DNA from: Terrimonas pollutisoli
GTDB taxonomy: Bacteria; Bacteroidota; Bacteroidia; Chitinophagales; Chitinophagaceae
Assembly: GCF_029360765.1 (NCBI RefSeq)
Contig: NZ_JARKNA010000002.1
Location: 275,334 to 307,333, forward strand
DNA: 32,000 nucleotides
Reading direction: 5' to 3'
The translations under genes and the position numbers were made by a program. Each line of letters opens with the position of its first letter. The first letter of the stretch is position 1. Of the stretch, positions 4,427 through 25,491 are shown piece after piece. The notes beneath the pieces are model-generated. The model did no database searches, was not told the origin of the DNA, and saw only the letters and a list, made by a program, of their open reading frames with translations.

Positions 4427-4638
4427 TTGTTTGTTTTTAACCTCACCCTCCATCTCCCTCTCCTTTGGAGAGGGAGCGGCGCTGTATATCTTTAATCAAC
4501 TATATATCTACCACATCACCAACATATCTCTACTCTGCATTTTCGAAGAGTCTGATAAAATTTTGAGTCGTCGAAAAGCGAGGGTTGTGCATTGCAAGTC
4601 TTCCGCCGCGGCGGAGAGATTTAGAGGGGGCCGACCTC
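4427..4638. repeat. Composite ~190-bp structured repeat, copy 1 (partner 21458-21689), filling the ATPase-permease spacer
   Basis: Positions 4441-4630 align by eye over their full length with the reverse complement of 21459-21646. The shared core is GCTGTATATCTTTAATCA.CTATAT..CTACCACATCA, followed by TTCGAAGA.TCT and CGAAAAGCGAGGG.TGTG. There is a terminal hairpin at each end: CTCCCTCTCC/GGAGAGGGAG (4454-4476) and TCCGCC-GC-GGCGGA (4602-4615), the latter followed by GAGATTTAGAGGGGG. Confidence 0.8.
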
Positions 4639-5280
4639 TTATAAATGAAGCAACCTCGTGTAGGGATAAAAATCAATTCTTTCCAAATCTGCAAAAATAA
4701 TGGCAGCATTTCTTGCTCTTGCTTCTTCCAGCATCAGCACCATCGCTTTTTGCGCATTGTTATCATCCAGGTGACTAAATGGTTCATCCAGCAATAAAAA
4801 CTCAAAGGGCTGCAATAATGAACGGATAATAGCAATCCGCTGCTGTTCGCCATAAGAGCAGGTGTTACAGGTGCTGCTCAGCTTATCTCCTATGCCCAAC
4901 CTGTTCGCCATTTCTTTTATCTTCTCAGGTGGATGAAATGGATTTAGCTGTCGTTTTATTTCCAGATTTTCCAGTACAGTTTGTGCCGGAAAGAGACGTA
5001 AATCCTGGAAAACAATACTGAGATGATCTTTTCGGTGATGAGCCGAATCTTCTGCTGAGAAGTCACGGATTGATTTATTATCGTAGCTGATCGTACCGTT
5101 ATAATCATTTCGGATGCCATAGAGGAAATTCATGAGTGACGATTTCCCACTTCCCGATGGCGCCACGATCTTGATCCATTCGCCTTTTTCAAACAAAAGT
5201 TCTTTGCCCCAAACGTCAGATGATTGAGTTCTGCTTTGATCAAAGTATGTCGGAAGCAGGTTGCTGATTCGTAACTCCAT
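4639..5280 (-). CDS. ABC transporter ATP-binding protein (divergent signature and H-loop)
   Basis: Walker A is APSGSGKSS, the Q-loop is VFQDLRLFPAQTV and Walker B/D-loop is FLLLDEPFSHLD. The signature reads CSYGEQQR instead of LSGGQ. There is no His where the switch H-loop is expected (AAIIFADLE). Confidence 0.85.
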   Translation of the reverse strand: MELRISNLLPTYFDQSRTQSSDVWGKELLFEKGEWIKIVAPSGSGKSSLMNFLYGIRNDYNGTISYDNKSIRDFSAEDSAHHRKDHLSIVFQDLRLFPAQTVLENLEIKRQLNPFHPPEKIKEMANRLGIGDKLSSTCNTCSYGEQQRIAIIRSLLQPFEFLLLDEPFSHLDDNNAQKAMVLMLEEARARNAAIIFADLERIDFYPYTRLLHL

Positions 5281-8497: not shown

Positions 8498-9016
8498 TTA
8501 TTTCAATTTGAAAGGTGTTTCTAAAGCCCCTTTAGGGCCTGCCTGTCCGGTAGGCAGGGTTGGGGTATATTTTTCGATGATGCAGGTGCATACTTCATTG
8601 ATCATTTTGTACACTTCATGATAACCAGGTTCCGGCCCATACCAGGGGTCGGGTACATCCAGGTTTTTGCCGGGGAAAATTTCATTCATCAGCAAATCCA
8701 CTTTTTTCGGGTCGTACTTGTTTTTGGCTATGCGTTGAATATCATCCAGTACATCACCTGCCAGGGCATAAATTTTATCATACATCTCGAAATCAGCCGG
8801 CACAAACCGGCGGGCACGTTGCCTGCTAATGTCAAGCCCATTCAGCTTTGCAACCTTTTGCGATAAATGATGCGGACCTTCGCCAATATGATAACTATTT
8901 GTTCCGGCACTTTCAACGCTCCAGTTTAATCCGGCCTCAAACGCCTTTTGCTGTAAAATACCTTCGGCCAACGGACTCCGGCAAATATTACCTAAACAGA
9001 CCATTAAGATTTTCAT
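8498..9016 (-). CDS. Low-molecular-weight protein-tyrosine phosphatase (possibly arsenate-reductase-like fold)
   Basis: MKILMVCLGNICRSPLAEG contains the C-X5-R-S P-loop, and DVPDPWYG contains the general-acid Asp. The last ~24 codons (PTLPTGQAGPKGALETPFKLK) are encoded by hairpin repeats; see findings. Confidence 0.85.
   Translation of the reverse strand: MKILMVCLGNICRSPLAEGILQQKAFEAGLNWSVESAGTNSYHIGEGPHHLSQKVAKLNGLDISRQRARRFVPADFEMYDKIYALAGDVLDDIQRIAKNKYDPKKVDLLMNEIFPGKNLDVPDPWYGPEPGYHEVYKMINEVCTCIIEKYTPTLPTGQAGPKGALETPFKLK
8526..8568 (+). repeat. Two adjacent GC hairpins plus G-tail (hairpin/G-tail family), antisense to the surrounding genes and inside the phosphatase 3' coding end
   Basis: The first hairpin is GCCC-CTTTA-GGGC (8526-8538). 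The second is CCTGCCT (8538-8544) / AGGCAGG (8552-8558), followed by the tail GTTGGGGTAT (8559-8568). Confidence 0.7.
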
Positions 9017-13443: not shown

Positions 13444-13584
13444 CCCCTGTCTTCGCCAACTGGCGGAGAACTTAGGTCTGGGTATTTTGTCGGGGATAAA
13501 GATTAAATAAACTAAATTTTTAATGACCTGTGATGTCCTTTCGACATTCGGGATTTAAAGCTCCGCCGCGGCGGATTTGGGGTT
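13444..13584 (+). repeat. Bipartite structured spacer nuoB-nuoC (hairpin/G-tail family, two copies)
   Basis: The left copy is CCCCTGT, then CTTCGCC-AACT-GGCGGAG (13451-13468), then AACTTAGGTCTGGG and TATTTTG. The right copy is TCCGCC-GC-GGCGGA (13562-13575) followed by TTTGGGG-TT-ATG of nuoC. Confidence 0.75.
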
Positions 13585-14175
13585 ATGTCTCTTACAAACG
13601 AACATATCAGGCAACGGCTAACGGAAAAATTTAATGACCAGGTCTCTGGCTTTGAAGAGCCGTATGGCATGCTCACTTTTGAAGCCCCGAAAGAAATAAA
13701 TCTCAAAGTCCTGAATTTTTTATACGATGATGAGGAGTTGAAATTCAGGTTTCTCACCGATCTGTGTGCCGTACATTACCCGGGAAATAAAGACAAAGAA
13801 TTAGCGGTTGTCTATCATTTGCACAATCTCGGGGACAACGTCCGCATCCGTTTCAAGGTATTTACCAAAATAGATAAGCCGGACGTTTACACGGCTACAG
13901 GATTATTTTCAGCCGCCAATTGGATGGAAAGAGAAACCTATGATTTTTACGGGATCAATTTTGTCGGTCATCCTAACCTGAAAAGGATTTTGAATGTCGA
14001 TGAGATGGACTACTTCCCCATGCGGAAGCAATACCCATTGGAAGATCAAAGCCGCATTGACAAAGATGATGAAATGTTTGGCAGGGGTGGAACGATTGGT
14101 TTTGGCACGGAAAAAACGGATCATGGAACGATAATCGAATCGGACAAAGACAATGTGGGCGAAAATATTGTTTGA
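13585..14175 (+). CDS. nuoC: NADH-quinone oxidoreductase subunit C
   Basis: It carries the 30-kDa subunit signature SAANWMERETYDFYGINFVGHP. It has a hydrophilic C-terminal tail of ~30 aa. Confidence 0.9.
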   Translation: MSLTNEHIRQRLTEKFNDQVSGFEEPYGMLTFEAPKEINLKVLNFLYDDEELKFRFLTDLCAVHYPGNKDKELAVVYHLHNLGDNVRIRFKVFTKIDKPDVYTATGLFSAANWMERETYDFYGINFVGHPNLKRILNVDEMDYFPMRKQYPLEDQSRIDKDDEMFGRGGTIGFGTEKTDHGTIIESDKDNVGENIV

Positions 14176-14215
14176 ATTATAAACTAATGGTCCCTTAAAA
14201 AAGGATTGGGCTATC

Positions 14216-15439
14216 ATGGCTGAACAGCATATAAAGCTTCCGGAAGGAAGTATTGAGAAAACCACCACCACGTTAAACCTGGGGCCTACTCACCCGGCCA
14301 CGCATGGTGTAATGCAGAATATCCTGGAGTTGGATGGTGAACGCATTGTTTCTGCGGACCAAACAATCGGCTATATTCACCGGGCTTTTGAAAAAATTGC
14401 CGAACGTCGTCCTCTCTACCAAATCACTCCACTTACAGACAGGTTAAACTATTGCTCGTCGCCTATTAATAATATGGGCTGGCACCTTACCTGTGAAAAA
14501 TTATTAGGCGTGAAAACGCCTAAAAGAGTGGATTATCTCCGCATCATTATCATGGAGCTCGCCAGGATATCCGATCACCTGATCTGTAATTCTATTGTTG
14601 GTGTGGATAGTGGTGCTTACACAGGTTTCTTGTACGTAATGCAATACCGTGAGCTGATCTATGAAATATATGAGGAGATATGCGGTTCACGTTTGACCAC
14701 TAATATCGGTCGTATCGGCGGTTTTGAGAGAAATTTCAATGACATCGCGTTTCAAAAAATTCAAAAATTTCTCGACGAATATCCACGGGTATTAAAAGAA
14801 TTTGAAAACCTGTTTACCCGTAACAGGATATTCATGGAGCGGACTATTGGCGCAGGGCCCATTAGTGCTGAGCGGGCCATGAACTATGGCTTTACAGGTC
14901 CTAATCTTCGTGCCGCGGGTGTAGACTATGATGTGCGTACACATACGCCTTATAGCAGCTACGAAGATTTTGAGTTTGATATCCCGGTAGGAACTACAGG
15001 TGATTGCTATGATCGTTTTTTGGTTCGCAACCAGGAAATGTGGCAGTCGCTTCGCATCCTTGACCAGGCATTTAAACAAGTGCAGGAATTCAAAGGGGCT
15101 GAAGCAGATATTTATCACGCTGATGTTCCCGAATATTATTTGCCCGAAAAGAAAGATGTGTACACAAAGATGGAAGCATTGATCTGGCATTTCAAGATCA
15201 TTATGGGTGAAATTGATATGCCGCCGGGTGAAGTATATCAGAGTGTGGAAGGTGGAAATGGGGAACTTGGATTTTACCTGATCAGTGATGGCGGAAGAAC
15301 ACCTTATCGTCTTCATTTTCGCAGGCCTTGTTTCATTTATTACCAGGCTTATGAAGAGTTGACAAAAGGCGCCATGCTCAGTGATGCAATCATCGTGATG
15401 TCATCATTGAATTTGATTGCGGGGGAAATGGATGCTTAA
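14216..15439 (+). CDS. nuoD: NADH-quinone oxidoreductase subunit D
   Basis: It is a 407-aa 49-kDa subunit with LNLGPTHPATHGV and RIGGFER. Confidence 0.95.
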   Translation: MAEQHIKLPEGSIEKTTTTLNLGPTHPATHGVMQNILELDGERIVSADQTIGYIHRAFEKIAERRPLYQITPLTDRLNYCSSPINNMGWHLTCEKLLGVKTPKRVDYLRIIIMELARISDHLICNSIVGVDSGAYTGFLYVMQYRELIYEIYEEICGSRLTTNIGRIGGFERNFNDIAFQKIQKFLDEYPRVLKEFENLFTRNRIFMERTIGAGPISAERAMNYGFTGPNLRAAGVDYDVRTHTPYSSYEDFEFDIPVGTTGDCYDRFLVRNQEMWQSLRILDQAFKQVQEFKGAEADIYHADVPEYYLPEKKDVYTKMEALIWHFKIIMGEIDMPPGEVYQSVEGGNGELGFYLISDGGRTPYRLHFRRPCFIYYQAYEELTKGAMLSDAIIVMSSLNLIAGEMDA

Positions 15440-15597
15440 CCCCCCTGCCCACTAAAGGGGAGACTTAGGTCAGAGGGGTTTGTATTTTTGAAAAGTTGGT
15501 TTAAAGTAAGAGTTGACAAATTGAATTTATAATAAAAGTACACTTTGCTTTTTGGTGGAGTGTTTCAAAACTCTCCGCCGAAGGCGGATTGGGGCAT
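15440..15597 (+). repeat. Bipartite structured spacer nuoD-nuoE (hairpin/G-tail family, two copies; left copy is terminator-like)
   Basis: In the left copy, outer stem CCCCCTG (15441-15447) pairs with CAG(A)GGGG (15471-15478). It encloses CCC-ACTAAA-GGGG-AGACTTAGGT and is followed by TTTGTATTTTT. The right copy is TCCGCC-GAA-GGCGGA (15574-15588) followed by TTGGGG-CAT-ATG of nuoE. Confidence 0.75.
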
Positions 15598-16098
15598 ATG
15601 ATAAAATTTTCAGACGATAAATTAAAAGAGGTGCAGGGAATTATTTCCCGGTACCCGGATGGCAAACAAAAAAGCGCCGTCATTCCTGTGTTACATTTAG
15701 CGCAGCAGGAGTTTGGAGGCTGGCTCGATGTTCCGGTGATGGACTATGTAGCAACACTGTTGAATATTACGCCTATTGAAGTGTATGAAGTGGCTACCTT
15801 CTATAGTATGTTCAATTTAAAACCTGTGGGCAAATATATGTTTGAGGTTTGCCAAACAGGGCCCTGCATGGTCAGCGGATGTGATGATATCATTAATTAT
15901 ATCGGGGAGAAACTGGGTATCAAACCTGGTCAAACAACCAGCGATGGGATGTTTACATTAAAAACGGTGGAATGCCTGGGAGCCTGCGGTTATGCGCCAA
16001 TGATGCAGATGGGCAAATATTATAAAGAGCATTTGACAAAGGAAAGGGTTGACCAGATCATTGATGAATGCAGGAAAAGTGCGGTTGCCAACAACTAA
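15598..16098 (+). CDS. nuoE: NADH-quinone oxidoreductase subunit E (2Fe-2S)
   Basis: Cys ligands are CQTGPC and VECLGACGYAP. I prefer the ATG at 15598 because the TTG at 15589 lies in the repeat tail. Confidence 0.9.
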   Translation: MIKFSDDKLKEVQGIISRYPDGKQKSAVIPVLHLAQQEFGGWLDVPVMDYVATLLNITPIEVYEVATFYSMFNLKPVGKYMFEVCQTGPCMVSGCDDIINYIGEKLGIKPGQTTSDGMFTLKTVECLGACGYAPMMQMGKYYKEHLTKERVDQIIDECRKSAVANN

Positions 16099-16115
16099 AC
16101 CAAACGCTTGCACAT

Positions 16116-16559
16116 ATGAAAAAGATCATCAGTTTGATGAGTTTGTTCTTTGTTTTTGTGGCATGTAATAATGCTGGTGATAAAAAAGAGGAATCGAAAG
16201 ATACCAGCACTACAGTAGATCAGGTAGTAAAAAAGGAGCCAGTGGTAACAGAAAGTTATCATGGGGTCATACCTTGTGCCGATTGTGAAGGTATTGAAGT
16301 ATCTCTTAGTCTTATGGATAACGGCACTTACAGCAGGCATGATTTGTATATTTCAAAAAAAGCGAAAGAGCCGGGCAGTAATGAATTCTCTTACCGTGAT
16401 AAATTCATTATGCATGGCGATACGCTGCAACTGCTGGGCATTACTGAGGGAGCGGATCATTATTTAAAAACAGATTCAACGCTGATCCAATTGGGAGCCG
16501 ATAACCATCGAATAACCGGAAACCTGGCGTATAAATATGTATTAAAGAAAACGAACTGA
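16116..16559 (+). CDS. NlpE-N-terminal-domain-like (copper-resistance-type) lipoprotein
   Basis: It has a lipobox (SLFFVFVACNN) and YHGVIPCADCEGIEVSLSL with a CxxC motif, as in the NlpE N-domain. I prefer the ATG at 16116. Confidence 0.65.
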   Translation: MKKIISLMSLFFVFVACNNAGDKKEESKDTSTTVDQVVKKEPVVTESYHGVIPCADCEGIEVSLSLMDNGTYSRHDLYISKKAKEPGSNEFSYRDKFIMHGDTLQLLGITEGADHYLKTDSTLIQLGADNHRITGNLAYKYVLKKTN

Positions 16560-16566
16560 ATATATA

Positions 16567-16992
16567 ATGGAGGCGATAGTACCATATTTGACATTCAATG
16601 GAAATGCCGCTGAGGCATTAACTTTTTACACAAAGGCATTTGATGGAAAAGTCTTGTTTCAGCAAAGCTTTGGTGAATCACCGATGGGCAACGAAACACC
16701 GGATGAATATAAAAACAAAGTAATGCATGCTACCTTCCAGGCGGGTGATCTTACATTCATGGTATCTGATAATATGCCAGGCCATCAGGTTAGTGGTGGT
16801 ACCAACCTTAGTTTGTCGTTAAATTTTAAAACGGTAGCGGATATTGATAAAATATTTGCTGCTTTATCAGAAGGAGCTAAGATTACAATGCCTTTACAGG
16901 ATACATTCTGGGGAGCCAAATTTGGAATGTTGACTGACAAATTCGGAATCAACTGGATGTTTAATCATGATTATGAAAAGAAGGAAAAGTAA
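16567..16992 (+). CDS. VOC-superfamily protein, PhnB-like (glyoxalase/bleomycin-resistance fold)
   Basis: The pattern is PYLTFNGNAAEALTFYTKAF...VMHATF......TFWGAKFGMLTDKFGINWMFN, typical of PhnB / 3-demethylubiquinone-methyltransferase-domain (PF06983-type) proteins. This is from recognition and not searched. Confidence 0.75.
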   Translation: MEAIVPYLTFNGNAAEALTFYTKAFDGKVLFQQSFGESPMGNETPDEYKNKVMHATFQAGDLTFMVSDNMPGHQVSGGTNLSLSLNFKTVADIDKIFAALSEGAKITMPLQDTFWGAKFGMLTDKFGINWMFNHDYEKKEK

Positions 16993-17418
16993 ATGCGTTT
17001 CTTTCTGACTCTTATATTGTTCTTTACAAGTTTGATTCTTGTTGCACAGGCTGATAGCGTTGGCTTAAAAGAAGCGATGCGAACCCTGGATAAAGCATTA
17101 ATGGAAAAGGATAGTGTTGCTTTATCGAAACTGTTGCACAATAAAGTAAGCTTTGGTCATTCGAATGGTTGGGTACAAATGGGGAAGGAGGTGTGGAATG
17201 ACTTGGTAAGCGGCAAGCTGGTGTATAAGAGGATTGACAATGGCTATACAACAATTGCAGCGATCGATAAAAAATGGGCAACTGTGAGAATGAATATTGC
17301 GGCTGAAGGAAAATTGAATGATAAAGTTTTTGCGATGAACCTGCACGTATTACAGGTTTGGATGAAAACAAAAAAAGGCTGGCAGTTGGTGGCGAGACAA
17401 AGTGCAAAGATTAATTAA
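16993..17418 (+). CDS. Secreted NTF2/SnoaL-like (DUF4440-type) protein
   Basis: It has a signal peptide, MRFFLTLILFFTSLILVAQA. Its ~120-aa size and the pattern LDKA....D...L..LL......GHSNG........W, ending with WQLVARQS, are typical of the SnoaL-like fold. Its start codon abuts the previous stop. Confidence 0.55.
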   Translation: MRFFLTLILFFTSLILVAQADSVGLKEAMRTLDKALMEKDSVALSKLLHNKVSFGHSNGWVQMGKEVWNDLVSGKLVYKRIDNGYTTIAAIDKKWATVRMNIAAEGKLNDKVFAMNLHVLQVWMKTKKGWQLVARQSAKIN

Positions 17419-17427
17419 AAAGCCAGG

Positions 17428-17462
17428 CTCGAAGTTCAAAGCTCGAAGCTGGTAGCTTAGAA
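17428..17462 (+). repeat. Tandem heptamer array upstream of nuoF
   Basis: The array is GCTCGAA GTTCAAA GCTCGAA GCTGGTA GCTTAGA, five 7-mers in phase. It contains the AAGCT-GGT-AGCTT mini-hairpin (17446-17458), 6 nt before the ATG. Confidence 0.7.
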
Positions 17463-17464
17463 AT

Positions 17465-18820
17465 ATGGGAAGAAAATTATTATTAGAAAAAGCTCACGTT
17501 GAAAACATCAGGTATTATGATGTATATCGTCGTGAAGGTGGTTATAGAAGTGTGGAAAAGGCGCTGAAGATGGCGCCTAATGATATTACCGAAGAGGTAA
17601 AAAGGAGTGGGTTAAGAGGACGTGGTGGCGCTGGTTTCCCTACGGGAATGAAATGGAGCTTTTTGGCCAAACCCGAAGGTGTGCCCCGCTACCTGGTTGT
17701 AAATGCTGATGAGTCAGAGCCGGGAACGTTCAAGGATCGTTACCTGATGGAGTTCATTCCCCACCTGCTAATTGAAGGAATGATCGTTTCTTCTTTTGCA
17801 TTAGGCTCTAATCGTTCTTATATCTACATCCGTGGGGAATATGCCTGGATTGTTGATATTCTCGAACAAGCGATAACAGAAGCAAAAAATAATGGGTGGT
17901 TAGGAAAAAATATACAAGGCAGTGGCTTTGATTGCGAGATCTATGTGCAACGTGGTGCGGGTGCCTACATCTGTGGTGAGGAAACAGCTTTGTTGGAATC
18001 CCTGGAAGGCAAGAGAGGTAATCCAAGGATAAAACCTCCATTCCCTGCCGTAAAAGGTCTATGGGATTGCCCTACGGTGGTGAACAATGTTGAAACCATT
18101 GCGGCTGTTGTTCCCATTATCAATGAAGGAGCTGACGAGTATGCAAAGATTGGAGTGGGTAAATCAACAGGTACAAAACTTATTTCAGCCTGTGGTAATA
18201 TTAATAAGCCGGGTGTTTATGAAATCGATATGACCATTTCTGTCGAAGAATTTATTTTCAGCGAAGAATGGTGTGGCGGTATCAAAAATGGTAAAAGACT
18301 GAAAGCTTGTATTCCGGGTGGATCATCTGTTCCCATTTTGCCGGCCAATCTTTTATTGAAAACCGCCAGGGGTGATACCCGCATGATGAATTACGAGAGC
18401 CTGAGTGATGGCGGGTTTGCGACGGGTACTATGATGGGATCAGGTGGATTTATCGTGCTGGATGAAGACCAGTGTGTGGTGAAACACACGTATACATTGG
18501 CCAGGTTCTACCGTCATGAAAGTTGTGGTCAGTGTTCTCCATGCCGTGAAGGAACAGGCTGGATGGAAAAATTATTATTGCGTTTGGATAAAGGACAGGG
18601 CAAACTGAGTGATATTGACCTGCTTTGGGATATACAGCGAAAGATTGAGGGAAATACGATTTGTCCTTTGGGAGATGCAGCTGCATGGCCTGTAGCCGCA
18701 GCTATCCGTCATTTCAGGGACGAGTTTGAATGGCATGTGCTGAATCCTGATGAGTGTACTAAAAGGAATTATGGTTTGGCGCATTATGCGGAGCCTTTGC
18801 AGATGGCAACACCTGCGTAA
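17465..18820 (+). CDS. nuoF: NADH-quinone oxidoreductase subunit F (FMN, 4Fe-4S)
   Basis: Motifs are GLRGRGGAGFPTGMKW, GAGAYICGEETALLESLEG and ESCGQCSPCREG. Confidence 0.95.
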   Translation: MGRKLLLEKAHVENIRYYDVYRREGGYRSVEKALKMAPNDITEEVKRSGLRGRGGAGFPTGMKWSFLAKPEGVPRYLVVNADESEPGTFKDRYLMEFIPHLLIEGMIVSSFALGSNRSYIYIRGEYAWIVDILEQAITEAKNNGWLGKNIQGSGFDCEIYVQRGAGAYICGEETALLESLEGKRGNPRIKPPFPAVKGLWDCPTVVNNVETIAAVVPIINEGADEYAKIGVGKSTGTKLISACGNINKPGVYEIDMTISVEEFIFSEEWCGGIKNGKRLKACIPGGSSVPILPANLLLKTARGDTRMMNYESLSDGGFATGTMMGSGGFIVLDEDQCVVKHTYTLARFYRHESCGQCSPCREGTGWMEKLLLRLDKGQGKLSDIDLLWDIQRKIEGNTICPLGDAAAWPVAAAIRHFRDEFEWHVLNPDECTKRNYGLAHYAEPLQMATPA

Positions 18821-18821
18821 A

Positions 18822-18857
18822 TTTCACGCAAAGGCGCAAAGAAATTAAGACGCAAAG
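18822..18857 (+). repeat. Left inverted-repeat arm of the GxxExxY cassette (four 8-mers)
   Basis: TTTC, then ACGCAAAG GCGCAAAG AAATTAAG ACGCAAAG. The arm ends 3 nt before the ORF ATG. Confidence 0.8.
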
Positions 18858-18860
18858 AAT

Positions 18861-19238
18861 ATGACCGAAAACGATATATCGAGAATGGTTGTTGATTTGT
18901 GTTTTAGAATTCATAAACAATATGGCCCAGGATTGTTTGAGAGTGTTTACGAAGAAATATTTTGCTATGAATGGGCAAAGAATGGGATACCGTTTAAAAG
19001 ACAACATGGCGTTCCGTTAGTTCACGAAGAAATAAGAATGGAAATAGGATTCAGGGCCGACGTAATAGTTGATGATAAGGTAATTATAGAATTAAAGTCT
19101 GTTGAAACACTTGCGGAAATTCATTATAAGCAGATGCAGACATATTTAAAATTGACGCATATTAAATTAGGATTACTGATAAATTTTAATGTGCCTTTAA
19201 TAAAAAATGGGATTCATAGAATAGTCAATAACTTATAA
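18861..19238 (+). CDS. GxxExxY family protein (PD-(D/E)XK nuclease-like motif)
   Basis: GPGLFESVY matches GxxExxY, and RADVIVDDKVIIELK provides a D...ExK arrangement. At 125 aa it is typical of the family NCBI labels GxxExxY protein. Confidence 0.85.
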   Translation: MTENDISRMVVDLCFRIHKQYGPGLFESVYEEIFCYEWAKNGIPFKRQHGVPLVHEEIRMEIGFRADVIVDDKVIIELKSVETLAEIHYKQMQTYLKLTHIKLGLLINFNVPLIKNGIHRIVNNL

Positions 19239-19239
19239 A

Positions 19240-19275
19240 CTTTGCGCCTTGGCTCCTTTGCAGCTTTGCGTGAAA
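19240..19275 (+). repeat. Right inverted-repeat arm of the GxxExxY cassette
   Basis: CTTTGCGC CTTGGCTC CTTTGCAG CTTTGCGT, then GAAA. It starts 1 nt after the ORF stop. CTTTGCGTGAAA (19264-19275) is the exact reverse complement of TTTCACGCAAAG (18822-18833). Confidence 0.8.
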
Positions 19276-19283
19276 CCAAAAAT

Positions 19284-20393
19284 ATGGCTGAAGAAAAAAA
19301 ATTATTTAAAGTAACCATTGACAATATCTCCATCGATGTGGAGCCGGGAACAACTATTCTGATGGCTGCACGAAAAATTGGTGGTGATGTTACGCCACCG
19401 GCAATGTGTTTCTATAGCAAGCTGAAGGGCAGTGGTGGTAAATGCCGCACCTGTTTGGTAGAAGTAGCGGCAGGTTCTGCTGCCGATCCAAGGCCAATGC
19501 CAAAGCTGGTAGCAAGTTGCCGTACTACGGTGATGGACGGAATGATTGTAAAGAATATTACAAGTGACAGAGTAATGGATGCAAGGGCCGGTGTGGTGGA
19601 ATTCCTCTTACTAAATCATCCACTCGATTGCCCTATTTGCGACCAGGCTGGTGAATGTCACTTGCAGGACCTCAGTTACGAGCATGGTAAAGAGGGTACC
19701 CGGTATGAGTTTTCAAGAAGAACATTTGAGAAAGAAGATATTGGTCCCTACATACAACTGCACATGACAAGGTGCATTCTTTGTTATCGTTGTACCTATG
19801 TCGCCGATCAGTTGACCAACAGCCGTGTACATGGTGTGCTGGATCGGGGCGATCATGCTGAGATATCAACCTATATTTCCAAAGCTATCGATAATGACTT
19901 CAGCGGAAATATGATTGACGTATGCCCTGTCGGTGCATTAACCGATAGAACCTTCCGGTTCAAAAACCGGGTTTGGTTCACCAAGCCGGTTGATGCCCAT
20001 CGTGATTGTCCAACCTGTAACGGCAAAGTAACACTTTGGAATCGTGGTGATGAAGTGTTGAGGGTAACTGCCAGGAAAGATGAATGGGGTGAAGTGCAAA
20101 GCTATGATGGCAAACCAGGCTGGATATGCAATGACTGCCGCTTCGATAAAAAGAAATTGAGTGATTGGGTAATTGAAGGGCCAACCAAAGTCAATCGTCA
20201 CTCGGTTATTTCAGCCAATCATTATGTCGGAGCCAGAAAGCCGCAGGAAACTGTTGCTGAAGTAATGGGCGGAAGACAACCGAAATTGTTGATGGATATT
20301 CATGCCATCAGTGATGTAAATGATCCGACTGTTGACCTAAGTGAAATAAACGGGCCAGCTACAGGTGCAACATTTAATAATAAGAAACAATAA
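19284..20393 (+). CDS. nuoG: NADH-quinone oxidoreductase subunit G, short form (2Fe-2S plus 4Fe-4S domains, no molybdopterin-like domain)
   Basis: Motifs are CRTCLVEV, HPLDCPICDQAGECHLQD, CILCYRCTYV and CPVGALT. I prefer the ATG at 19284 because the longer ORF start at 19242 lies in the repeat arm. Confidence 0.85.
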   Translation: MAEEKKLFKVTIDNISIDVEPGTTILMAARKIGGDVTPPAMCFYSKLKGSGGKCRTCLVEVAAGSAADPRPMPKLVASCRTTVMDGMIVKNITSDRVMDARAGVVEFLLLNHPLDCPICDQAGECHLQDLSYEHGKEGTRYEFSRRTFEKEDIGPYIQLHMTRCILCYRCTYVADQLTNSRVHGVLDRGDHAEISTYISKAIDNDFSGNMIDVCPVGALTDRTFRFKNRVWFTKPVDAHRDCPTCNGKVTLWNRGDEVLRVTARKDEWGEVQSYDGKPGWICNDCRFDKKKLSDWVIEGPTKVNRHSVISANHYVGARKPQETVAEVMGGRQPKLLMDIHAISDVNDPTVDLSEINGPATGATFNNKKQ

Positions 20394-20398
20394 TAGCC

Positions 20399-21457
20399 AT
20401 GTATCTTCTAGCAGTTGATTGGTTTTTTATTTTAGAAAAATTTGTGTTGATAGCGGTGATTGTTTCCCTCTCGATGGTGGTGGCGATGTATGCTACCTAC
20501 GCTGAACGAAAAGTAGCCGCCTTTCTGCAGGATCGTATTGGTCCCAACCGTGCGGGTATTTTTGGATTGCTGCAACCTCTGGCGGATGGGGGCAAGCTAT
20601 TTTTTAAAGAAGAGATCATACCTCTTCTGTCTTCGAAGTTCCTTTTCATACTGGGACCAGCTTTGGCGATGATAACCGCATTGCTAACAAGTGCCGTAGT
20701 TCCCTGGGGACCATCTTTCTCCATCGGTGAAAGGCAGATTAATTTACAGATAGCGGACATTAATATCGGCATCCTGTATGTATTTGGAGTAGTCAGCCTT
20801 GGCGTATACGGTATCATGATCGGCGGATGGGCATCGAATAATAAGTTTTCATTATTGGCAGCTATACGGGGAGCTTCCCAAATGGTATCTTATGAATTAC
20901 CAATGGGTCTTGCCCTTATTGCTTTGCTTATGCTGGTAGGCGATCTTCGCATGAGTGCCATTGTGCAGAACCAATTAGGCAACGGATTTTTTAACTGGCA
21001 TATCTGGTATCAGCCATTGGGCTTTCTCATCTTTTTTGTGTGTGCCCTGGCCGAGTGTAACCGTACACCATTTGACTTACCGGAAGCAGAAAATGAATTG
21101 AACTTCGGTTATCACCAGGAGTACTCATCCATGAAGCTGGGTTTCTATCTTTTTGCTGAATACATCAATATGTTTATCAGTGGGGTGATCATGTCAACAC
21201 TGTATTTTGGTGGGTATGATATACCTTTTGTAAATGAAGCAACCTGGGGACTGGCTCCATGGTTACTATCACTGATTGGTTTTTCTGTGTTAATGTTCAA
21301 GGCATCGCTGTTTATATTCCTGTTTATGTGGATCCGCTGGACCATTCCGCGTTTCCGTTTTGATCAGTTGATGAAGTTGGGCTGGCGGACATTGATACCA
21401 TTAGCATTGGTGAATATGATATTGACTGCCGCGGTGGTGTTGTGGTTGAAGAAATAA
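20399..21457 (+). CDS. nuoH: NADH-quinone oxidoreductase subunit H
   Basis: It is a polytopic membrane protein with YAERKVAAFLQDRIGPNR and ECNRTPFDLPEAE. Confidence 0.93.
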   Translation: MYLLAVDWFFILEKFVLIAVIVSLSMVVAMYATYAERKVAAFLQDRIGPNRAGIFGLLQPLADGGKLFFKEEIIPLLSSKFLFILGPALAMITALLTSAVVPWGPSFSIGERQINLQIADINIGILYVFGVVSLGVYGIMIGGWASNNKFSLLAAIRGASQMVSYELPMGLALIALLMLVGDLRMSAIVQNQLGNGFFNWHIWYQPLGFLIFFVCALAECNRTPFDLPEAENELNFGYHQEYSSMKLGFYLFAEYINMFISGVIMSTLYFGGYDIPFVNEATWGLAPWLLSLIGFSVLMFKASLFIFLFMWIRWTIPRFRFDQLMKLGWRTLIPLALVNMILTAAVVLWLKK

Positions 21458-21689
21458 AGCCCATCCCGACCTTCCCGAAGGGAAGGCCATCCAAACACAG
21501 CCCTCGCTTTTCGGAGAATCGGTAATTAGTGAGAGTCTTCGAAAGTGTTGAATAGAGAGATAAAGATGATGTGGTAGTGATATAGATGATTAAAGATATA
21601 CAGCACCGCCTCCTCTCTTTTGGAGAGGAGGAAGGGAGGTGAGGCCTTATATTTGCGAAAAATTAAAATCTCCTGTTGGGAGTTGAGAT
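21458..21689. repeat. Composite ~190-bp structured repeat, copy 2 (partner 4427-4638, opposite orientation), filling the nuoH-nuoI spacer
   Basis: Terminal hairpins are CCTTCCC-GAA-GGGAAGG (21470-21486) and CCTCCTCTC-TTTTG-GAGAGGAGG (21609-21631), the latter followed by AAGGGAGGTGAGG. The interior is the reverse complement of the 4477-4600 core. Confidence 0.8.
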
Positions 21690-22232
21690 ATGCAATTAAC
21701 ACAAAGAGCAAAACAAGTGGATCGCAAGCCGATGACCTGGCTGGAGAAGATCTACCTGTGGAATATTGCGAAAGGAATGTGGATCACGTTAACGCATTTG
21801 TTTAAAAGAAAAGCAACGATACAGTATCCCGAGCAGAAAAGAACTTTTTCAAAAGTGTTTCGTGGGCTTCAAATTTTGAACCGCGACGAAGAGGGCCGTG
21901 AACGCTGTACCGCTTGCGGTCTTTGTGCTTTGGCCTGTCCTGCGGAAGCTATAACCATGGAAGCGGCAGAACGTCAGCCCGGAGAAGAGCACCTGTACAG
22001 GGAAGAAAAATATGCGGCGAAGTATGAGATCAACATGCTGCGTTGCATTTTCTGCGGCTATTGCGAAGAAGCCTGTCCGAAGGACGCAATTTATTTGTCG
22101 CAGACGTTTGCTCCGGCGAATTATGGAAGACAGGGGTTTATCTATAAAAAAGAAGACCTGTTGATCCCTAATCCAAAGGAAAACCCGGAAGCCTATAAAA
22201 AAGCGTTAGGGGATAGGGCGCCGAGGGTATAA
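21690..22232 (+). CDS. nuoI: NADH-quinone oxidoreductase subunit I (2x 4Fe-4S ferredoxin)
   Basis: It has CTACGLCALACP and CIFCGYCEEACP. Confidence 0.9.
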   Translation: MQLTQRAKQVDRKPMTWLEKIYLWNIAKGMWITLTHLFKRKATIQYPEQKRTFSKVFRGLQILNRDEEGRERCTACGLCALACPAEAITMEAAERQPGEEHLYREEKYAAKYEINMLRCIFCGYCEEACPKDAIYLSQTFAPANYGRQGFIYKKEDLLIPNPKENPEAYKKALGDRAPRV

Positions 22233-22235
22233 AAA

Positions 22236-22276
22236 GTTCAAAGTTTAATAGTTTAAAGTTTAAGGTTAGTTCAGAT
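22236..22276 (+). repeat. Tandem 7/8-mer array downstream of nuoI
   Basis: GTTCAAA GTTTAAT(A) GTTTAAA GTTTAAG GTTAGTT CAGAT. The same GTTCAAA unit occurs at 17435-17441. Confidence 0.65.
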
Positions 22277-22341
22277 AAATAATTAATTAAAAAAAGCATC
22301 CAGGGTTTGCATCCGCTACAGCGGAGAAAAGCTATTAGCTT

Positions 22342-22842
22342 ATGGGAATTACACAAATATTGTTTTGGTTACTTTCAGTGATGGCTTTGTTTGGGGCCCT
22401 GATGGTGGTAGTTAGCAAAAATCCCGTTTACAGTGTGTTGTGGCTCATCGTTACCTTCTTTGCCATTTCCGGTCATTATATTTTATTGAATGCGCAGTTT
22501 CTCGCAATTGTAAACGTCATCGTGTATGCAGGTGCGATCATGGTCTTGTTCCTGTTTGTGATCATGCTGATGAACCTGAATAAAGAAACAGAACCACAAA
22601 AAAATCGCTGGTTAAAAATTGCCGGGGCCTTAGCGGGTGGATGTTTATTATTGACGCTTGTTGCAGCCTTAAGGGGCAGCGAGCTGAAAGACGGAATAGC
22701 TGAGGTGAAAGTTGGTAATATCGGCTTGATCAAAAACCTGGGAAATGAGTTGTTCACTACTTATGTAGTACCGTTTGAGATCAGCAGTATTTTGTTTTTA
22801 AGTGCCATGGTAGGTGCGGTAGTGATAGGGAAAAAAGATTAG
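22342..22842 (+). CDS. nuoJ: NADH-quinone oxidoreductase subunit J
   Basis: It is a five-TM protein with VVSKNPVYSVLWLI and YAGAIMVLFLFVIML motifs, positioned between nuoI and nuoK. Confidence 0.88.
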   Translation: MGITQILFWLLSVMALFGALMVVVSKNPVYSVLWLIVTFFAISGHYILLNAQFLAIVNVIVYAGAIMVLFLFVIMLMNLNKETEPQKNRWLKIAGALAGGCLLLTLVAALRGSELKDGIAEVKVGNIGLIKNLGNELFTTYVVPFEISSILFLSAMVGAVVIGKKD

Positions 22843-23078
22843 CCCCTTGTCCCCCTGAAGGGGAGACTTAGGGCGGGCATTCTTTTTAATGTTGGAAATG
22901 TTCTTTTAAATGATAGTTGAATGATGTTGCAAACTTCAGTTCCCTGATTGGGCTTTTGTTGCGTCGCACACTTCAACGTTTAGTTCTTTAATCAATATTA
23001 AAAAACAATAGTTCACTCACGTCCTTAGGACTGTGGGTGGCAAGTCCCCTCCTTGGAAGGGGATTTAGGGGAGGCCGT
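22843..23078 (+). repeat. Bipartite structured spacer nuoJ-nuoK (hairpin/G-tail family, two copies)
   Basis: The left copy is CCCCTTGT, then TCCCC-CTGAA-GGGGA (22850-22864), then GACTTAGGGCGGGC and ATTCTTTTT. The right copy is TCCCCTCC..GGAAGGGGA (23045-23063) followed by TTTAGGGGAGG-CCGT-ATG of nuoK. Confidence 0.75.
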
Positions 23079-23411
23079 ATGCCAATAAATTATTACATAT
23101 TTCTGTCCATTGCTTTATTCTGCATCGGTATTGTGGGAGTGCTCACACGCCGCAATGCGATCATCATCTTTATGTGTATAGAGCTGATGTTGAATGCCGT
23201 GAACTTATTGTTGGTCGCATTTTCAAAAATGCACCACCTGAATGCAGCTGCTACTGGCAATGCAGCAGCCGGTACCGACGGGCAGTTGTTTGTATTCTTC
23301 ATTATGGTAGTTGCAGCAGCCGAGGTGAGTGTAGGATTGGCCATTATCGTAATGATGTACCGCAATATTCATTCGGTAGATGTAAACTTTTTGAACAGGT
23401 TAAAACATTAA
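23079..23411 (+). CDS. nuoK: NADH-quinone oxidoreductase subunit K
   Basis: It is a ~110-aa three-TM protein with [11 protein letters not shown] and [12 protein letters not shown] prefer the ATG at 23079 because the GTG at 23037 is inside the repeat. Confidence 0.9.
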
Positions 23412-23413
23412 AT

Positions 23414-23478
23414 AAGTACGAACTACGAACTACGAAGTACAGCGATCGTACCTCGTACTTCTCACTTCTTACTTCGTA
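23414..23478 (+). repeat. Long imperfect hairpin built from heptamer repeats (nuoK-nuoL spacer)
   Basis: The left arm is TACGAAC TACGAAC TACGAAG TAC (23417-23440) and the loop is AGCGATC. The right arm is GTACCTCG TACTTCT CACTTCT TACTTCG TA (23448-23478). I count 21 of 27 positions paired. It is followed by ATTGGGTT-ATG of nuoL. Confidence 0.75.
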
Positions 23479-23486
23479 ATTGGGTT

Positions 23487-25388
23487 ATGAAGAACGCATT
23501 AGACTTGGTTTATTTAATTCCGCTGTTGCCACTGATCGGTTTTTTGATCAATGGTCTTGGCCGAAAGCATTTGTCAAAAGGACTGATCGGTATTATCGGA
23601 AGTGGTACTGTATTCGTTTCATTTCTCATCAGTGTATGGGTATTCATGCAGGTAAAGGGAGGCAATACACATGTGGCCAATTATTTCACCTTTATCGCTG
23701 TTGACAAACTAAGCATTCCCTTTGCGTTTCAAATTGACCAGCTTTCTTCTATATTCCTGCTCATCATTACCGGCGTTGGATTTTTGATCCATCTCTATTC
23801 CACTTCGTATATGCATGAGGAAAAGACAGAACACTTCGGCAGGTACTTTTCTTATCTCAACCTGTTTGTCTTTTCGATGTTGCTGCTGGTGATGGGCGCC
23901 AACTATGTGATCATGTTTATCGGTTGGGAAGGGGTTGGATTGTGTTCCTATTTGCTGATTGGTTACTGGTTCAGGAATACAGAATACAACAAGGCAGCAA
24001 ACAAGGCCTTTATCATGAACCGGATTGGTGACCTGGCTTTCCTGATCGCTATTTTCTGGTTGATCAGCAAATTGGGTTCTGTTTCTTACGGTGACGTTTT
24101 TGCTAATGTAAAGAACCTGAGTGGAACCGATCTTACAACTATTACCATTTTATTATTTATCGGTGCCACCGGTAAAAGTGCACAAATTCCTTTATACACA
24201 TGGCTGCCTGATGCGATGGCCGGTCCCACACCTGTTTCTGCGCTCATCCATGCTGCTACCATGGTTACGGCGGGCATTTATATGATCGCCAGGAGCAATA
24301 TTTTATACTCATTGTCACCGGTAACCATGACCATCGTGACAATTATTGGATTAGCTACTGCACTGGTTGCCGCTACGATTGCTCTTAAGCAGAATGATAT
24401 CAAAAAAGTATTGGCTTATTCTACGGTAAGCCAGTTGGGATATATGTTTCTCGCCCTGGGAACAGGCTCTTATGTTGCCGCCGTTTTTCACGTGATGACA
24501 CATGCTTTTTTCAAAGCGTTGTTATTCCTCGGAAGCGGTAGTGTGATTCATGCCATGGGCGGCGAACAGGATATCCGCAAAATGGGTGGCTTAAGCAAAT
24601 ACATGAAAACAACCCACTGGACTTTTTTAGTTGGTTGTTTGGCAATTGCCGGTATTCCGGGTCTTTCAGGCTTCTTTTCAAAGGATGAAATATTGGCCGG
24701 TGCATTTGCAAAATCCCCAATTATCTATGCGATAGGTTTAGGGACGGCTTTGCTTACGGCTTTTTATATGTTCAGGTTGTATGCAACAACATTCAAAGGA
24801 AGCTTCCGCGGTACACACGACCAGGAGCATCATTTGCATGAAAGCCCTGCCGCCATTACAATCCCGCTGGTTATACTGGCCATTCTTTCTATCATTGGTG
24901 GCTATGTAGGTGTGCCTGAGTTTATCATGCATGGAGCACACTCCTTAAAAGAATTTTTAGCGCCGGTGTTTGACGGATCCAATAAAATTTTAGAGGCCCA
25001 TGAAGTTTCGCATGCTACGGAATGGATGCTGACCGGGGTATCAACCACACTGATTGTTATCACCATTCTATTTGCCTGGAACAAATTCAGCAAAAAACCA
25101 GATATCGAAGATGCAACAGGATTTGGAAAAGTGTTGGCGGATAAATGGTATGTGGATGAATTGTATGAAAAGGTAATTGTGAACCCGCTTGATAAGCTGG
25201 CCTTGTTTTTCAAAAATATTTTTGAAAAAAATGTCGTGGACGGAATTGTAAACGGAGTGGGGAGGGCTGTGAATTATGGGAGTCGTCAATTGAGGTTGCT
25301 GCAAAGCGGACAGGTGGGTAGCTATGTGTTGTTGATGGTATTGGGCATGGTATTGTTTTTTGTATTTCAATTTTTCCTGAGAAAGTAA
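23487..25388 (+). CDS. nuoL: NADH-quinone oxidoreductase subunit L
   Basis: It is a 633-aa antiporter-like subunit with WEGVGLCSYLLIGYW and SALIHAATMVTAG, plus a C-terminal lateral helix region. Confidence 0.95.
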   Translation: MKNALDLVYLIPLLPLIGFLINGLGRKHLSKGLIGIIGSGTVFVSFLISVWVFMQVKGGNTHVANYFTFIAVDKLSIPFAFQIDQLSSIFLLIITGVGFLIHLYSTSYMHEEKTEHFGRYFSYLNLFVFSMLLLVMGANYVIMFIGWEGVGLCSYLLIGYWFRNTEYNKAANKAFIMNRIGDLAFLIAIFWLISKLGSVSYGDVFANVKNLSGTDLTTITILLFIGATGKSAQIPLYTWLPDAMAGPTPVSALIHAATMVTAGIYMIARSNILYSLSPVTMTIVTIIGLATALVAATIALKQNDIKKVLAYSTVSQLGYMFLALGTGSYVAAVFHVMTHAFFKALLFLGSGSVIHAMGGEQDIRKMGGLSKYMKTTHWTFLVGCLAIAGIPGLSGFFSKDEILAGAFAKSPIIYAIGLGTALLTAFYMFRLYATTFKGSFRGTHDQEHHLHESPAAITIPLVILAILSIIGGYVGVPEFIMHGAHSLKEFLAPVFDGSNKILEAHEVSHATEWMLTGVSTTLIVITILFAWNKFSKKPDIEDATGFGKVLADKWYVDELYEKVIVNPLDKLALFFKNIFEKNVVDGIVNGVGRAVNYGSRQLRLLQSGQVGSYVLLMVLGMVLFFVFQFFLRK

Positions 25389-25469
25389 GCTAAGAGATCA
25401 AGGAGAAAAAGAGACAATTCAGGACGTGTCGAAAGGCGACGGTATTTTTAATAATTAAAATTTTAAATT

Positions 25470-25491
25470 CCCCTTTAGGGGATAGGGGCTT
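25470..25491 (+). repeat. Solo hairpin/G-tail copy immediately upstream of nuoM
   Basis: CCCC-TTTA-GGGG (25470-25481), followed by ATAGGGG-CTT-ATG. Confidence 0.65.

Follow-up and report, generated by a model that had tools for sequence, protein, structure and literature searches.

The spacers of the nuo operon of Terrimonas pollutisoli are filled with dispersed small palindromic repeats. On balance we regard these as probably mobile, non-autonomous elements of the repetitive extragenic palindrome (REP/REPIN) or miniature inverted-repeat transposable element (MITE) kind, which cap the ends of cistrons as RNA hairpins. The repeats were studied in a stretch of 32,000 nt (contig NZ_JARKNA010000002.1, positions 275,334 to 307,333, forward strand), here called the window. 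It consists of Bacteroidota-like DNA of about 42% G+C and carries the 14 nuo genes on the plus strand, from nuoA at 12352 to nuoN at 28350, with accessory genes interrupting the operon. A first-pass annotation of the window, made from the letters alone, had listed 12 hairpins followed by G-rich tails and had compared their behaviour to that of REPs and bacterial interspersed mosaic elements (BIMEs). All 12 hairpins were present, at or within a few bases of the positions given, and the comparison was apt, as a genuine, dense and non-random family of hairpin repeats fills the nuo spacers. Mobility would account for the source of the copies. By analogy with REP hairpins, the RNA hairpins would act as stabilisers of segment ends or as modulators of termination or initiation, and not as purpose-built regulators. 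The most economical reading is that the family is new in sequence and in habit within the REP/REPIN- or MITE-like repeats.

Anatomy of the units

The generic unit is a GC-rich hairpin of 5-9 bp with a pyrimidine-rich 5' arm. Its inner flank is CTAAAAG or CCTAAGT, and on its outer side come a linker of 2-4 nt and then four to six consecutive G. Two end types were distinguished. From hairpin to G-run, the pre-start unit reads (T)CTAAAAG-C / TCCGCC or TCCCC(T) / loop / GGCGGA or (A)GGGGA / TT(T), TA or TTA / GGGG / 1-5 nt / ATG. The post-stop unit reads, on the sense strand, stop / (A)CCCC / TG(T) or TTG / stem-loop-stem / GA(A)CTTAGG, which is the reverse complement of CCTAAGT(T/C)-stem-loop-stem-CA(A)-GGGG. 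The post-stop copy is therefore an inverted unit, and GA(A)CTTAGG is its inner flank and no counterpart of the TTTGGGG tail. The first-pass annotation had described one unit with one tail, present mostly in the sense orientation; neither point held, since GA(A)CTTAGG is not homologous to TTTGGGG and the spacers hold tail-out inverted pairs of the two different end types. The bipartite plan that it had described for the nuoB-C, nuoD-E and nuoJ-K spacers is real. These three filled spacers are tail-out inverted pairs, bounded by C- and G-runs and AT-rich inside.

Three forms of unit were seen: solo, as tail-out inverted pairs, and as the two ends of composite repeats of 140-300 nt. At least 25 tail-out pairs were found across three orders, with an inner distance of 58-113 nt, and they are the commonest arrangement in the Chitinophagaceae, Paludibacter and Bacteroidales loci. 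A composite of about 190 nt has two copies in the window, at 4441-4640 on the minus strand and in the nuoH-I spacer at 21458-21650 on the plus strand (164 nt aligned, 74% complementary). It follows the same tail-out design with different stems and a GGAGG(G)TGAGG tail. Terminal inverted repeats are present, as (A)CCCC...GGGG(T) and in Paludibacter as TGACCCCC...GGGGGTCA. The stems had been called copy-specific but always complementary; they are complementary but not unique to each copy, as a few types recur in the window (TCCGCC, TCCCC(C), CCTTCCC and CTCC(C/T)CTC). Among metagenome copies of the post-stop type, a conserved TCG.AGAAAC and then a T-rich tract follow CTTAGG, and no conserved motif was found upstream of the C-run.

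Enrichment and distribution

A strict grammar, requiring a perfect stem of at least 5 bp, a CT-rich 5' arm, a loop of 2-9 nt and GGGG within 5 nt, recovered 6 units in the window, where 30 dinucleotide shuffles gave 0.13 on average. The pattern CTCCGCC-N2-5-GGCGGATT-N0-1-GGGG had 2 exact matches against 0.00 expected (100 shuffles). Within the window, then, the family exceeds the expectation from composition.

Genome and metagenome collections were scanned with seed patterns, the pre-start seed being a 19-base pattern taken from two window copies and the metagenome replicate being seeded on the post-stop type. The pre-start pattern occurred in at least 120 stretches of the genome collection. 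Among the matches listed, about half belonged to Chitinophagaceae or other Chitinophagales (Ferruginibacter, Terrimonas, Niastella, Parafilimonas, Taibaiella and Flavipsychrobacter), and the others came from Paludibacter, other Bacteroidales and Cloacimonadota; matches in high-G+C genomes resemble chance hits in coding DNA. The post-stop pattern gave at least 130 matches in the metagenome collection. Near-identical sequences of 20-30 nt were found in unrelated loci and genera. One contig labelled Candidatus Saccharibacteria (L103) carries, within 8 kb, five CCCTCTCC/GGAGAGGG hairpins followed by TTGGGG(T/A)GAGG, a tail identical to that of window 21601-21644; mis-binning or horizontal spread may explain this.

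The seed-pattern scan of viral contigs gave just two chance matches, in coding DNA, and BLAST of the nuoB-C spacer against plasmid and phage collections gave no match. The covariance models of Rfam 15 had no match at the gathering threshold over 158 kb, and a search at E <= 5 gave only two unrelated chance matches. The literature, searched by topic and by sequence string, yielded no description of these units. The first reading had recognised no named element either, and this agrees with both searches. We conclude that this hairpin-repeat family is widespread in Bacteroidota, most of all in Chitinophagaceae, and, apparently, so far undescribed.

Insertion and turnover between relatives

Syntenic nuo loci from six relatives were compared with the window: L123 (Terrimonas sp. 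R1), L124, L125 (a noisy assembly), L126, L127 and L128. A look-up of the NuoC of the window by identical sequence gave no match. Unit-bearing nuo spacers were common to the window, L123 and L124 only, where NuoH is 97-98% identical (98% to Terrimonas sp. R1 and 97% to a metagenome contig). At the same junctions L126-L128 (NuoH 84-88%) have short or unrelated spacers without units. A covariance model built from an alignment of 85 units and run over the syntenic loci agreed with this, finding 7-8 units in the window, 5-6 each in L123 and L124, and 0-1 weak match in the L126-L128 loci (63 kb).

The nuoL-M junction provides an empty site. It reads 'TAA TT ATG' in L123 and L128 and 'TAG TTT ATG' in L127, and in the window it reads TAA [101 nt ending ...TCCCCTTTAGGGGATAGGGGC] TT ATG, giving a spacer of 103 nt versus 2 nt in Terrimonas sp. 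R1. This clean presence or absence in close relatives, together with the more distant relatives that have no units, indicates that the units are insertions and not ancestral signals of the operon. Turnover is also seen at nuoK-L, nuoJ-K and nuoC-D, where close relatives hold different repeat types at the same junction. In the more distant L097 and L040 (NuoC 71%, NuoD 85%), units are again found at the nuoB/C and nuoD/E junctions, which points to recurrent colonisation or to ancient gain followed by loss. The spacer interiors form families conserved among close relatives only; a GTTGCGTCGCACAC core recurs more widely, in the nuoJ-K filler of the window, the nuoD-E fillers of L123 and L124, and fillers in L021, L065, L109 and L117.

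Units also decay in place, as at 14189-14210 and in the nuoL-M spacer of L124. At the nuoD start, where the window copy is decayed, L040 (a more distant Chitinophagaceae locus) has an intact unit, TCCCCTtcAGGGGAtttagggg cATG. A palindromic mini-insert of about 20 nt, (G)TCCTGAGC(G/T)..GTCGAAGGA, sits nested precisely within hairpin loops of units in L123 (11240-11280 and 12470-12510), L124 (11225-11265) and the nuoD-E spacer of L040, and the window is without it. In L123 and L124 a nested insert of this size occupies the loop of the hairpin orthologous to 21601-21644.

The pair together with its filler was considered as the sole mobile unit; this is weakened by solo units and by convergent spacers in which a native terminator lies between the units. 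Fillers of other kinds were seen in two relatives. The nuoD-E filler of L126 (5897-6432) is a purine-rich tandem array of 536 nt, and the nuoB-C filler of L128 (3538-3894) consists of three tandem copies of about 119 nt rich in TTTGAAAATTTG.

Placement at gene boundaries

One specific end of the unit faces genes. In the Chitinophagales loci the G-run end lay within 5 nt of an open reading frame (ORF) boundary in 49 of 80 intergenic units (29 starts, 20 stops), and the other end in none of the 80; these and the other unit counts are across sampled loci, not per genome. About 30 of the 45 Chitinophagales seed loci have an ATG-initiated ORF 0-12 nt past the G-run, mostly 1-3 nt. Only 3 of 43 units in Paludibacter and Bacteroidales were boundary-adjacent. 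For NuoB and NuoD the stop is native, as is the start of NuoC and of NuoE; the proteins align over their full length to those of relatives without units.

In the metagenome replicate, whose counts are given here among the matches listed, 99 of the 130 units of post-stop type lie at a stop or span one. In those 99 a long ORF ends 0-15 nt before the C-run (43 within 0-2 nt) or inside the unit, where the TAG within CTTAGG, or a TAA or TGA of the loop, serves as the stop. Evaluable units lay at stops in 95 of 117 cases and before starts in none. The next gene was codirectional in 58 cases and convergent in 43, so the post-stop type is not confined to operons. The proposal that the repeats colonise operon spacers thus stands for the nuo spacers but falls short as a full picture, the post-stop type being as common at convergent ends. 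An earlier result of our own, that units occur only in codirectional spacers (13/134 vs 0/57), is withdrawn for the same reason; it arose because that search was seeded on the pre-start type. Where two genes converge, the other gene's stop often has a second unit against it, with the native bidirectional terminator between both units. Start-adjacent and stop-adjacent seeds differ in sequence, AAAG standing 5' of the stem in 19 of 31 of the former versus 1 of 13 of the latter.

Stem switching

The stem sequence changes between close relatives at orthologous sites whose flanks are conserved. After nuoB the post-stop stem is TTCGCC in the window, TCCGCC in L123 and CCCCC in L124. Before nuoC the stem is TCCGCC in the window and L123 and CCCT/AGGG in L124, and after nuoH it is CCTTCCC/GGGAAGG in the window, TCCCGAC/GTCGGGA in L123 and TCCCGA/TCGGGG in L124. 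Three paralogous copies in one Bacteroidales genome switch stems likewise, with complementarity kept. The observation that stems differ yet stay self-complementary therefore extends to orthologous sites in close relatives and to paralogous copies. The main covariation is a switch between two stem types, G:C versus C:G at one pair. Across the 85 aligned units, CG stands at pair 16-25 in 46 rows and GC in 39, with none unpaired, a count that is circular, since the alignment was preselected for perfect stems.

Structure-blind sampling carries more weight. A hairpin was carried by 21 of 23 ORF stops with CCCC within 10 nt, and the mean fold energy after stops was -11.9 kcal/mol with CCCC (n = 23) and -5.7 kcal/mol for the others (n = 285; Mann-Whitney p = 1e-7). 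A hairpin was likewise present at each of the six non-seed starts with GGGG ahead of them. The stem pattern had been taken as the mark of a selected secondary structure. The conserved pairing is confirmed; the step to a selected RNA does not follow from conserved structure alone, as the same pattern arises from quasi-palindrome correction and from mobile DNA with palindromic ends.

Known repeat systems and candidate mobilisers

The units resemble, in several respects, the REP/BIME sequences of enterobacteria and the REPIN doublets of Pseudomonas, which are mobilised by REP-associated tyrosine transposases (RAYTs). Both are short, GC-rich, imperfect palindromes with many extragenic, transcribed copies and several subfamilies per genome. 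Both form inverted doublets with a short spacer, able to fold into a long hairpin, without target-site duplication, and both often lie very close to or overlap the stop of the upstream gene. REP termini often provide the stop codon (PMC3733652). REPs are defined by a GT[AG]G or CGTC tetranucleotide at the hairpin foot (PMC3733652, PMC6006769), which the present units do not have. None of the 85 aligned units has either at its 5' foot; their flanks are CTAAAAG or CCTAAGT (CTAAGT in the alignment) on the 5' side and NNN-GGGG on the 3' side. Unlike REPs, many of the units lie 1-3 nt upstream of starts, one defined end always faces the ORF, and the core spans several orders and another phylum.

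REPs of RAYT subclass 2.6 share the host phylum, being atypical, genome-dispersed palindromes of Bacteroidetes without GTAG (Quentin et al. 2018, PMC6006769). Their sequences, for example GCTAG-CGCGAGCG-tcc-CGCTCGTG and GCTG-GCGCGAGC-atat-GCTCGTGCC (PMC6006769), are unlike the present units. A single RAYT-like gene was found in the 1 Mb examined, in Terrimonas sp. R1 between trpF and trpB (L015:5623-6189, 188 aa). It has a weak Y1_Tnp match and the motifs NHIH and YIHENP, as in subclass 2.6 (PMC6006769). With its inverted flanking palindromes (L015:5555-6241) this gene is likely the REPtron of a second repeat system in Terrimonas. The flanking palindrome, GCT-CTGCGAAGTC-tcc-GACTTCGCAG, and the subclass 2.6 REPs resemble other spacer hairpins (GCTCGAAG..., CTGCGAAGTC... 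and GTACGAA...), including the types at 17419-17460 and 23414-23478 of the window.

Correia (NEMIS) elements of Neisseria and ERIC/IRU elements of enterobacteria, which are of MITE type and co-transcribed with genes, are alike in length (100-300 nt), in their terminal inverted repeats and long RNA hairpins, and in lying between operon genes with presence or absence differences between strains and internal deletions. Correia elements make a TA target duplication, form a fixed sequence family and are processed by RNase III, whereas no duplication was seen here, interiors are unconserved beyond close relatives, and the ends also occur alone. The small dispersed repeats (SDR) of heterocystous cyanobacteria, attributed to Elhai et al. 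2008, are reportedly hairpin repeats of about 20-30 nt that nest and replace one another at the same position. They differ from the present units in sequence and phylum, and we know of no gene-boundary rule described for them. Rickettsia palindromic elements are likewise tolerated in reading frames, as are the present units where ORFs end in the unit loop or in CTTAGG; the Rickettsia elements lie in frame in mid-gene and are translated, whereas the present units touch the last codons only.

Tail-out pairs 0.6-3.5 kb apart were inspected for an enclosed transposase. The enclosed ORFs are ordinary genes (araD, trpE-like) or a DUF559 nuclease, and no full-length insertion sequence with the same ends was seen among these pairs. 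At L073:1699-2393 (Bacteroidales) and L034:4398-4926 (Paludibacter), a gene for a DUF559 (Vsr-like) nuclease is found some 30-70 nt away from a unit pair; the L073 gene stands between two direct post-stop-type copies and its ORF runs through another hairpin. This association in two genera is a lead only.

Several observations weigh against repeats of the REP/REPIN or MITE kind as the full account. No transposase or other mobilising gene tied to the units was found in the loci examined, and the RAYT-like gene is flanked by a different palindrome. No target-site duplication was seen between the empty and filled nuoL-M sites or in six Paludibacter pairs, which also rules out the TA duplication that ACCCC...GGGGT between TA had suggested. 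Random insertion with tolerance leaves unexplained why one specific end lies 0-3 nt from native stops and starts and why the post-stop subtype never precedes a start. Such exact polar placement and strict subtype orientation point either to rule-based targeting or to a function, which might lie in termination, re-initiation or the protection of transcript ends. Around post-stop units no defined target motif was found. In addition, ORFs in the loci were called only crudely, and seed patterns determined which loci were sampled.

Favoured reading and alternative explanations

If the units are mobile repeats, they would insert, or be retained, with the G/C-run end against a native stop (stop-CCCC-hairpin) or start (hairpin-GGGG-1-3 nt-ATG). 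In the transcript, cistrons would then be bordered at their very 3' and 5' ends by stable hairpins, and in paired spacers the post-stop C-run could also pair with the pre-start G-run, closing the spacer. Liang, Rudd and Deutscher are said to have found, in 2015, that REPs within 15 nt of a stop have effects.

A doubtful but serious possibility is that the units are purpose-built RNA elements of cistron boundaries, selected as regulatory modules, and that their spread is secondary. Pairing of C-run and G-run would maintain or tune translational coupling over long spacers, the terminating ribosome exposing the next start codon, or the units would punctuate polycistronic mRNA into segments whose ends are protected. 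The exact polar placement 0-3 nt from native stops and starts, the strict gene orientation of the post-stop subtype (95:0 among the matches listed) and the AAAG bias of start-adjacent seeds would be expected of such elements. Folding gives further support. The nuoB-C spacer is predicted to form one long hairpin in which UAGCCCC pairs with GGGGUUA beside the AUG (z = -3.4), other filled spacers are predicted to form local hairpins plus closing helices, and pairing of the post-stop C-run with the pre-start G-run is predicted in 11 of 13 paired spacers. Controls with shuffled interiors pair equally, however, so the closing helix follows from the termini alone and the long-range pairing was dropped as a sign of selection. 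The three truly imperfect, informative stems all carry U.G on the sense strand. As a test for RNA-level selection the comparison of wobbles with mismatches was likewise set aside, most one-mismatch cases being perfect stems in another register and the three that are left being too few. The suggestion that the G-tail could give alternative folds agrees with prediction: for several copies such folds come within 0.3-1 kcal/mol of the energy optimum.

Other observations speak against elements built for this purpose. The units are absent at the same junctions of relatives with 84-88% NuoH identity that have the same operon, and they are thus dispensable; solo units are common, and units decay in place. 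G at -2 to -5 and a stable hairpin just before the AUG are also unfavourable. The initiation regions of Flavobacterium, according to work by Baez et al. in 2019, are reportedly A-rich and unstructured, and the pre-start units run counter to this.

A combination of mobility and coupling seems unlikely to us. On this proposal the repeat is a mobile cassette, adapted to a phylum with little Shine-Dalgarno-guided initiation, that lands exactly between a stop and the next start, the junction being re-closed by the C-run/G-run helix. Stop and start would stay adjacent, and a terminating ribosome would unmask the next AUG and re-initiate, a bacterial analogue of ribosome shunting across the base of a stem. 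If true, coupled operons such as nuo could be invaded without breaking stoichiometric expression, and a targeting rule recognising stop/start junctions would be implied.

It is rather improbable that the units are sites acting at the level of DNA, either bound by a protein (gyrase, integration host factor (IHF), a nucleoid protein or a PD-(D/E)XK/DUF559 nuclease) or extruded as cruciforms, with the RNA hairpins as a by-product. Gyrase or IHF bind the BIMEs of Escherichia coli. Perfect or near-perfect palindromes whose stems are replaced wholesale yet stay complementary fit DNA quasi-palindrome correction, and the insertions nested exactly in hairpin loops are in keeping with such sites. The DUF559 genes beside unit pairs in L073 and L034, and a PDDEXK_3 gene with 41-nt inverted repeats in the same operon, also favour them. 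A strict dependence of subtype and orientation on the adjacent gene is unexpected for a symmetric site, no binding protein was found, and the nuclease association comprises two loci.

We think it improbable that the units are no more than intrinsic terminators of the usual kind, or terminator-promoter punctuation, with a superficial likeness to one another. In favour of this, one Bacteroidales genome has TTTTTT directly after the GC-rich hairpin of its left unit, post-stop units have a conserved T-rich tract 11-20 nt past CTTAGG, and the post-stop type is over-represented at convergent ends. The terminator scan called none of the window units, however, and none has a T-run directly after it. 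Native bidirectional terminators lie between the two units of convergent spacers, and nothing in the sense-strand layout of pre-start units follows the logic of a terminator. The near-identical 20-30 nt sequences shared by unrelated loci and genera indicate common descent and not convergence.

A chance or compositional artefact, to which short stems of low complexity with easily paired C- and G-runs might lend themselves, is already refuted by the shuffles and by the collection scans, which returned hundreds of near-identical copies in a consistent position.

Units and neighbouring features of the window

The units of the window are listed in Table 1.

Table 1. Repeat units and fillers in the window, with covariance model scores where obtained.
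Feature	Position	Strand	Sequence and remarks	Score (bits)
Post-stop unit, nuoB	13444..13482	+	Right after stop: TAG, CCCC TGTC TTCGCC aact GGCGGA GAACTTAGG TCTGGG; inverted copy; one sense-strand U.G wobble; minimum-energy fold pairs it end to end with 13554-13582	
AT-rich filler, nuoB-C pair	13483..13553	+	Conserved in the two closest relatives only	
Pre-start unit, nuoC	13554..13582	+	TTTAAAGC TCCGCC gc GGCGGA TTT GGGG tt ATG	30.4
Decayed pre-start unit, nuoD	14189..14210	+	GG TCCCTT aaaa AAGGA TTGGG ctatc ATG	
Post-stop unit, nuoD	15440..15478	+	Abuts stop: TAA, CCCCCC TG CCCAC taaa GGGGA GACTTAGG TCAGAGGGG; inner stem partly degenerate	14.4 (minus strand)
Pre-start unit, nuoE	15565..15594	+	TCAAAACTC TCCGCC gaa GGCGGA TT GGGG cat ATG	28.1
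Post-stop end of ~190-nt composite, after nuoH	21458..21492	+	TAA, AGCCC ATCCCGA CCTTCCC gaa GGGAAGG CCATCC	
Right end of nuoH-I composite	21601..21644	+	CCGC CTCCTCTC ttttg GAGAGGAG GAAGGGAGGTGAGG	
Post-stop unit, nuoJ	22843..22878	+	Abuts stop: TAG, CCCC TTG TCCCC ctgaa GGGGA GACTTAGG GCGGGC	22.6 (minus strand)
Filler, nuoJ-K pair	22879..23038	+	GTTGCGTCGCACAC core at 22958-22971	
Pre-start unit, nuoK	23039..23074	+	GGCAAG TCCCCTCC tt GGAAGGGGA TTTA GGGG AGG ccgt ATG	13.2
Solo pre-start unit, nuoM	25461..25488	+	TTTTAAAT TCCCC ttta GGGGA TA GGGG ctt ATG; right end of the 101-nt insertion at nuoL-M	29.0
Post-stop end, second ~190-nt composite	4599..4630	-	Minus-strand operon, after ABC ATPase gene 4639-5280	
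Right end, second ~190-nt composite	4441..4484	-	CTCCCTCTCC aaa GGAGAGGGAG ATGGAGGGTGAGG	
Unit-like double hairpin	8526..8565	-	Within last 22 codons of a low-molecular-weight phosphatase ORF; gene strand CCCCAAC CCTGCCT accggac AGGCAGG CCCTAAAGGGGC	9.5 (weak)

The hairpin listed earlier at 8538-8568 is present; it sits within the 3' end of an ORF. This phosphatase ORF (window 8498-8565) runs through the unit and thereby gains a 22-aa tail, TPTLPTGQAGPKGALETPFKLK, its Pfam domain ending at residue 144 of 172. In the 4427-4453 region the tail of the right end of the second composite contains the first ATG of an FtsX-like ORF (MEGEVKNKQ-M...), which is probably not where translation of the gene begins.

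The right end of the nuoH-I composite stops at a conserved promoter-like TATATTTGCGAAAA, about 45 nt ahead of the nuoI ATG. The sequence CCTTATATTTGCGAAAAATT (window 21646-21671) is conserved upstream of nuoI in all six syntenic genomes, and the composite ends exactly there. Part of it, TATATTTG, conforms to the -7 promoter consensus of Bacteroidota, TAnnTTTG, and the sequence is therefore a probable internal promoter. In the fillers, a by-eye check for Bacteroidota promoter motifs found no consistent TTTG/TAnnTTTG pair.

Further small repeats were noted. Hairpins of the GCTCGAAG type lie at 17419-17460, between the nuoE cluster and nuoF, the nuoK-L spacer (23414-23478) holds a long imperfect hairpin of the GTACGAAC type, and the nuoI-J spacer (22233-22265) holds tandem AAAGTT(C/T)AA units. 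Between nuoF and nuoG (window 18822-19275) lies a PDDEXK_3 (PD-(D/E)XK) ORF of 125 aa (18861-19238), bracketed by a CGCAAAG-rich inverted repeat of 41 nt (18822-18862 and 19235-19275). It is found at the same site in L123, L124 and L127 and is absent in L126 and L128, so that it looks like a mobile gene cassette. The nuoE-nuoF interval (16068-17418) contains three accessory genes, encoding NlpE-like, glyoxalase/3-dmu-9_3-mt and DUF4440 proteins. This set varies, with DUF2442/DUF4160 in L123 and DUF4440 alone in L124 and L126.

Implications

Small palindromic repeats are well studied in Proteobacteria and hardly in Bacteroidota. The family described here is widespread in soil Chitinophagaceae, turns over fast between close relatives, and is placed with single-nucleotide regularity at stops and starts, always with a fixed end facing the gene. 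It also has practical consequences. Gene calling in metagenome-assembled genomes is affected, because units lengthen or shorten ORFs at their ends and can provide spurious first ATGs, and the units are likely break points in short-read assemblies.

Translation initiation in Bacteroidota is largely not guided by Shine-Dalgarno sequences, of which the phylum makes little use. If the placement of the units reflects targeting, it would point to an insertion mechanism able to recognise gene junctions. Should the placement reflect function, it would bear on how polycistronic mRNA is translated and processed in a phylum whose ribosomes ignore Shine-Dalgarno sequences, and on how an essential operon of stoichiometric expression tolerates insertions of 100-300 nt at most of its junctions.

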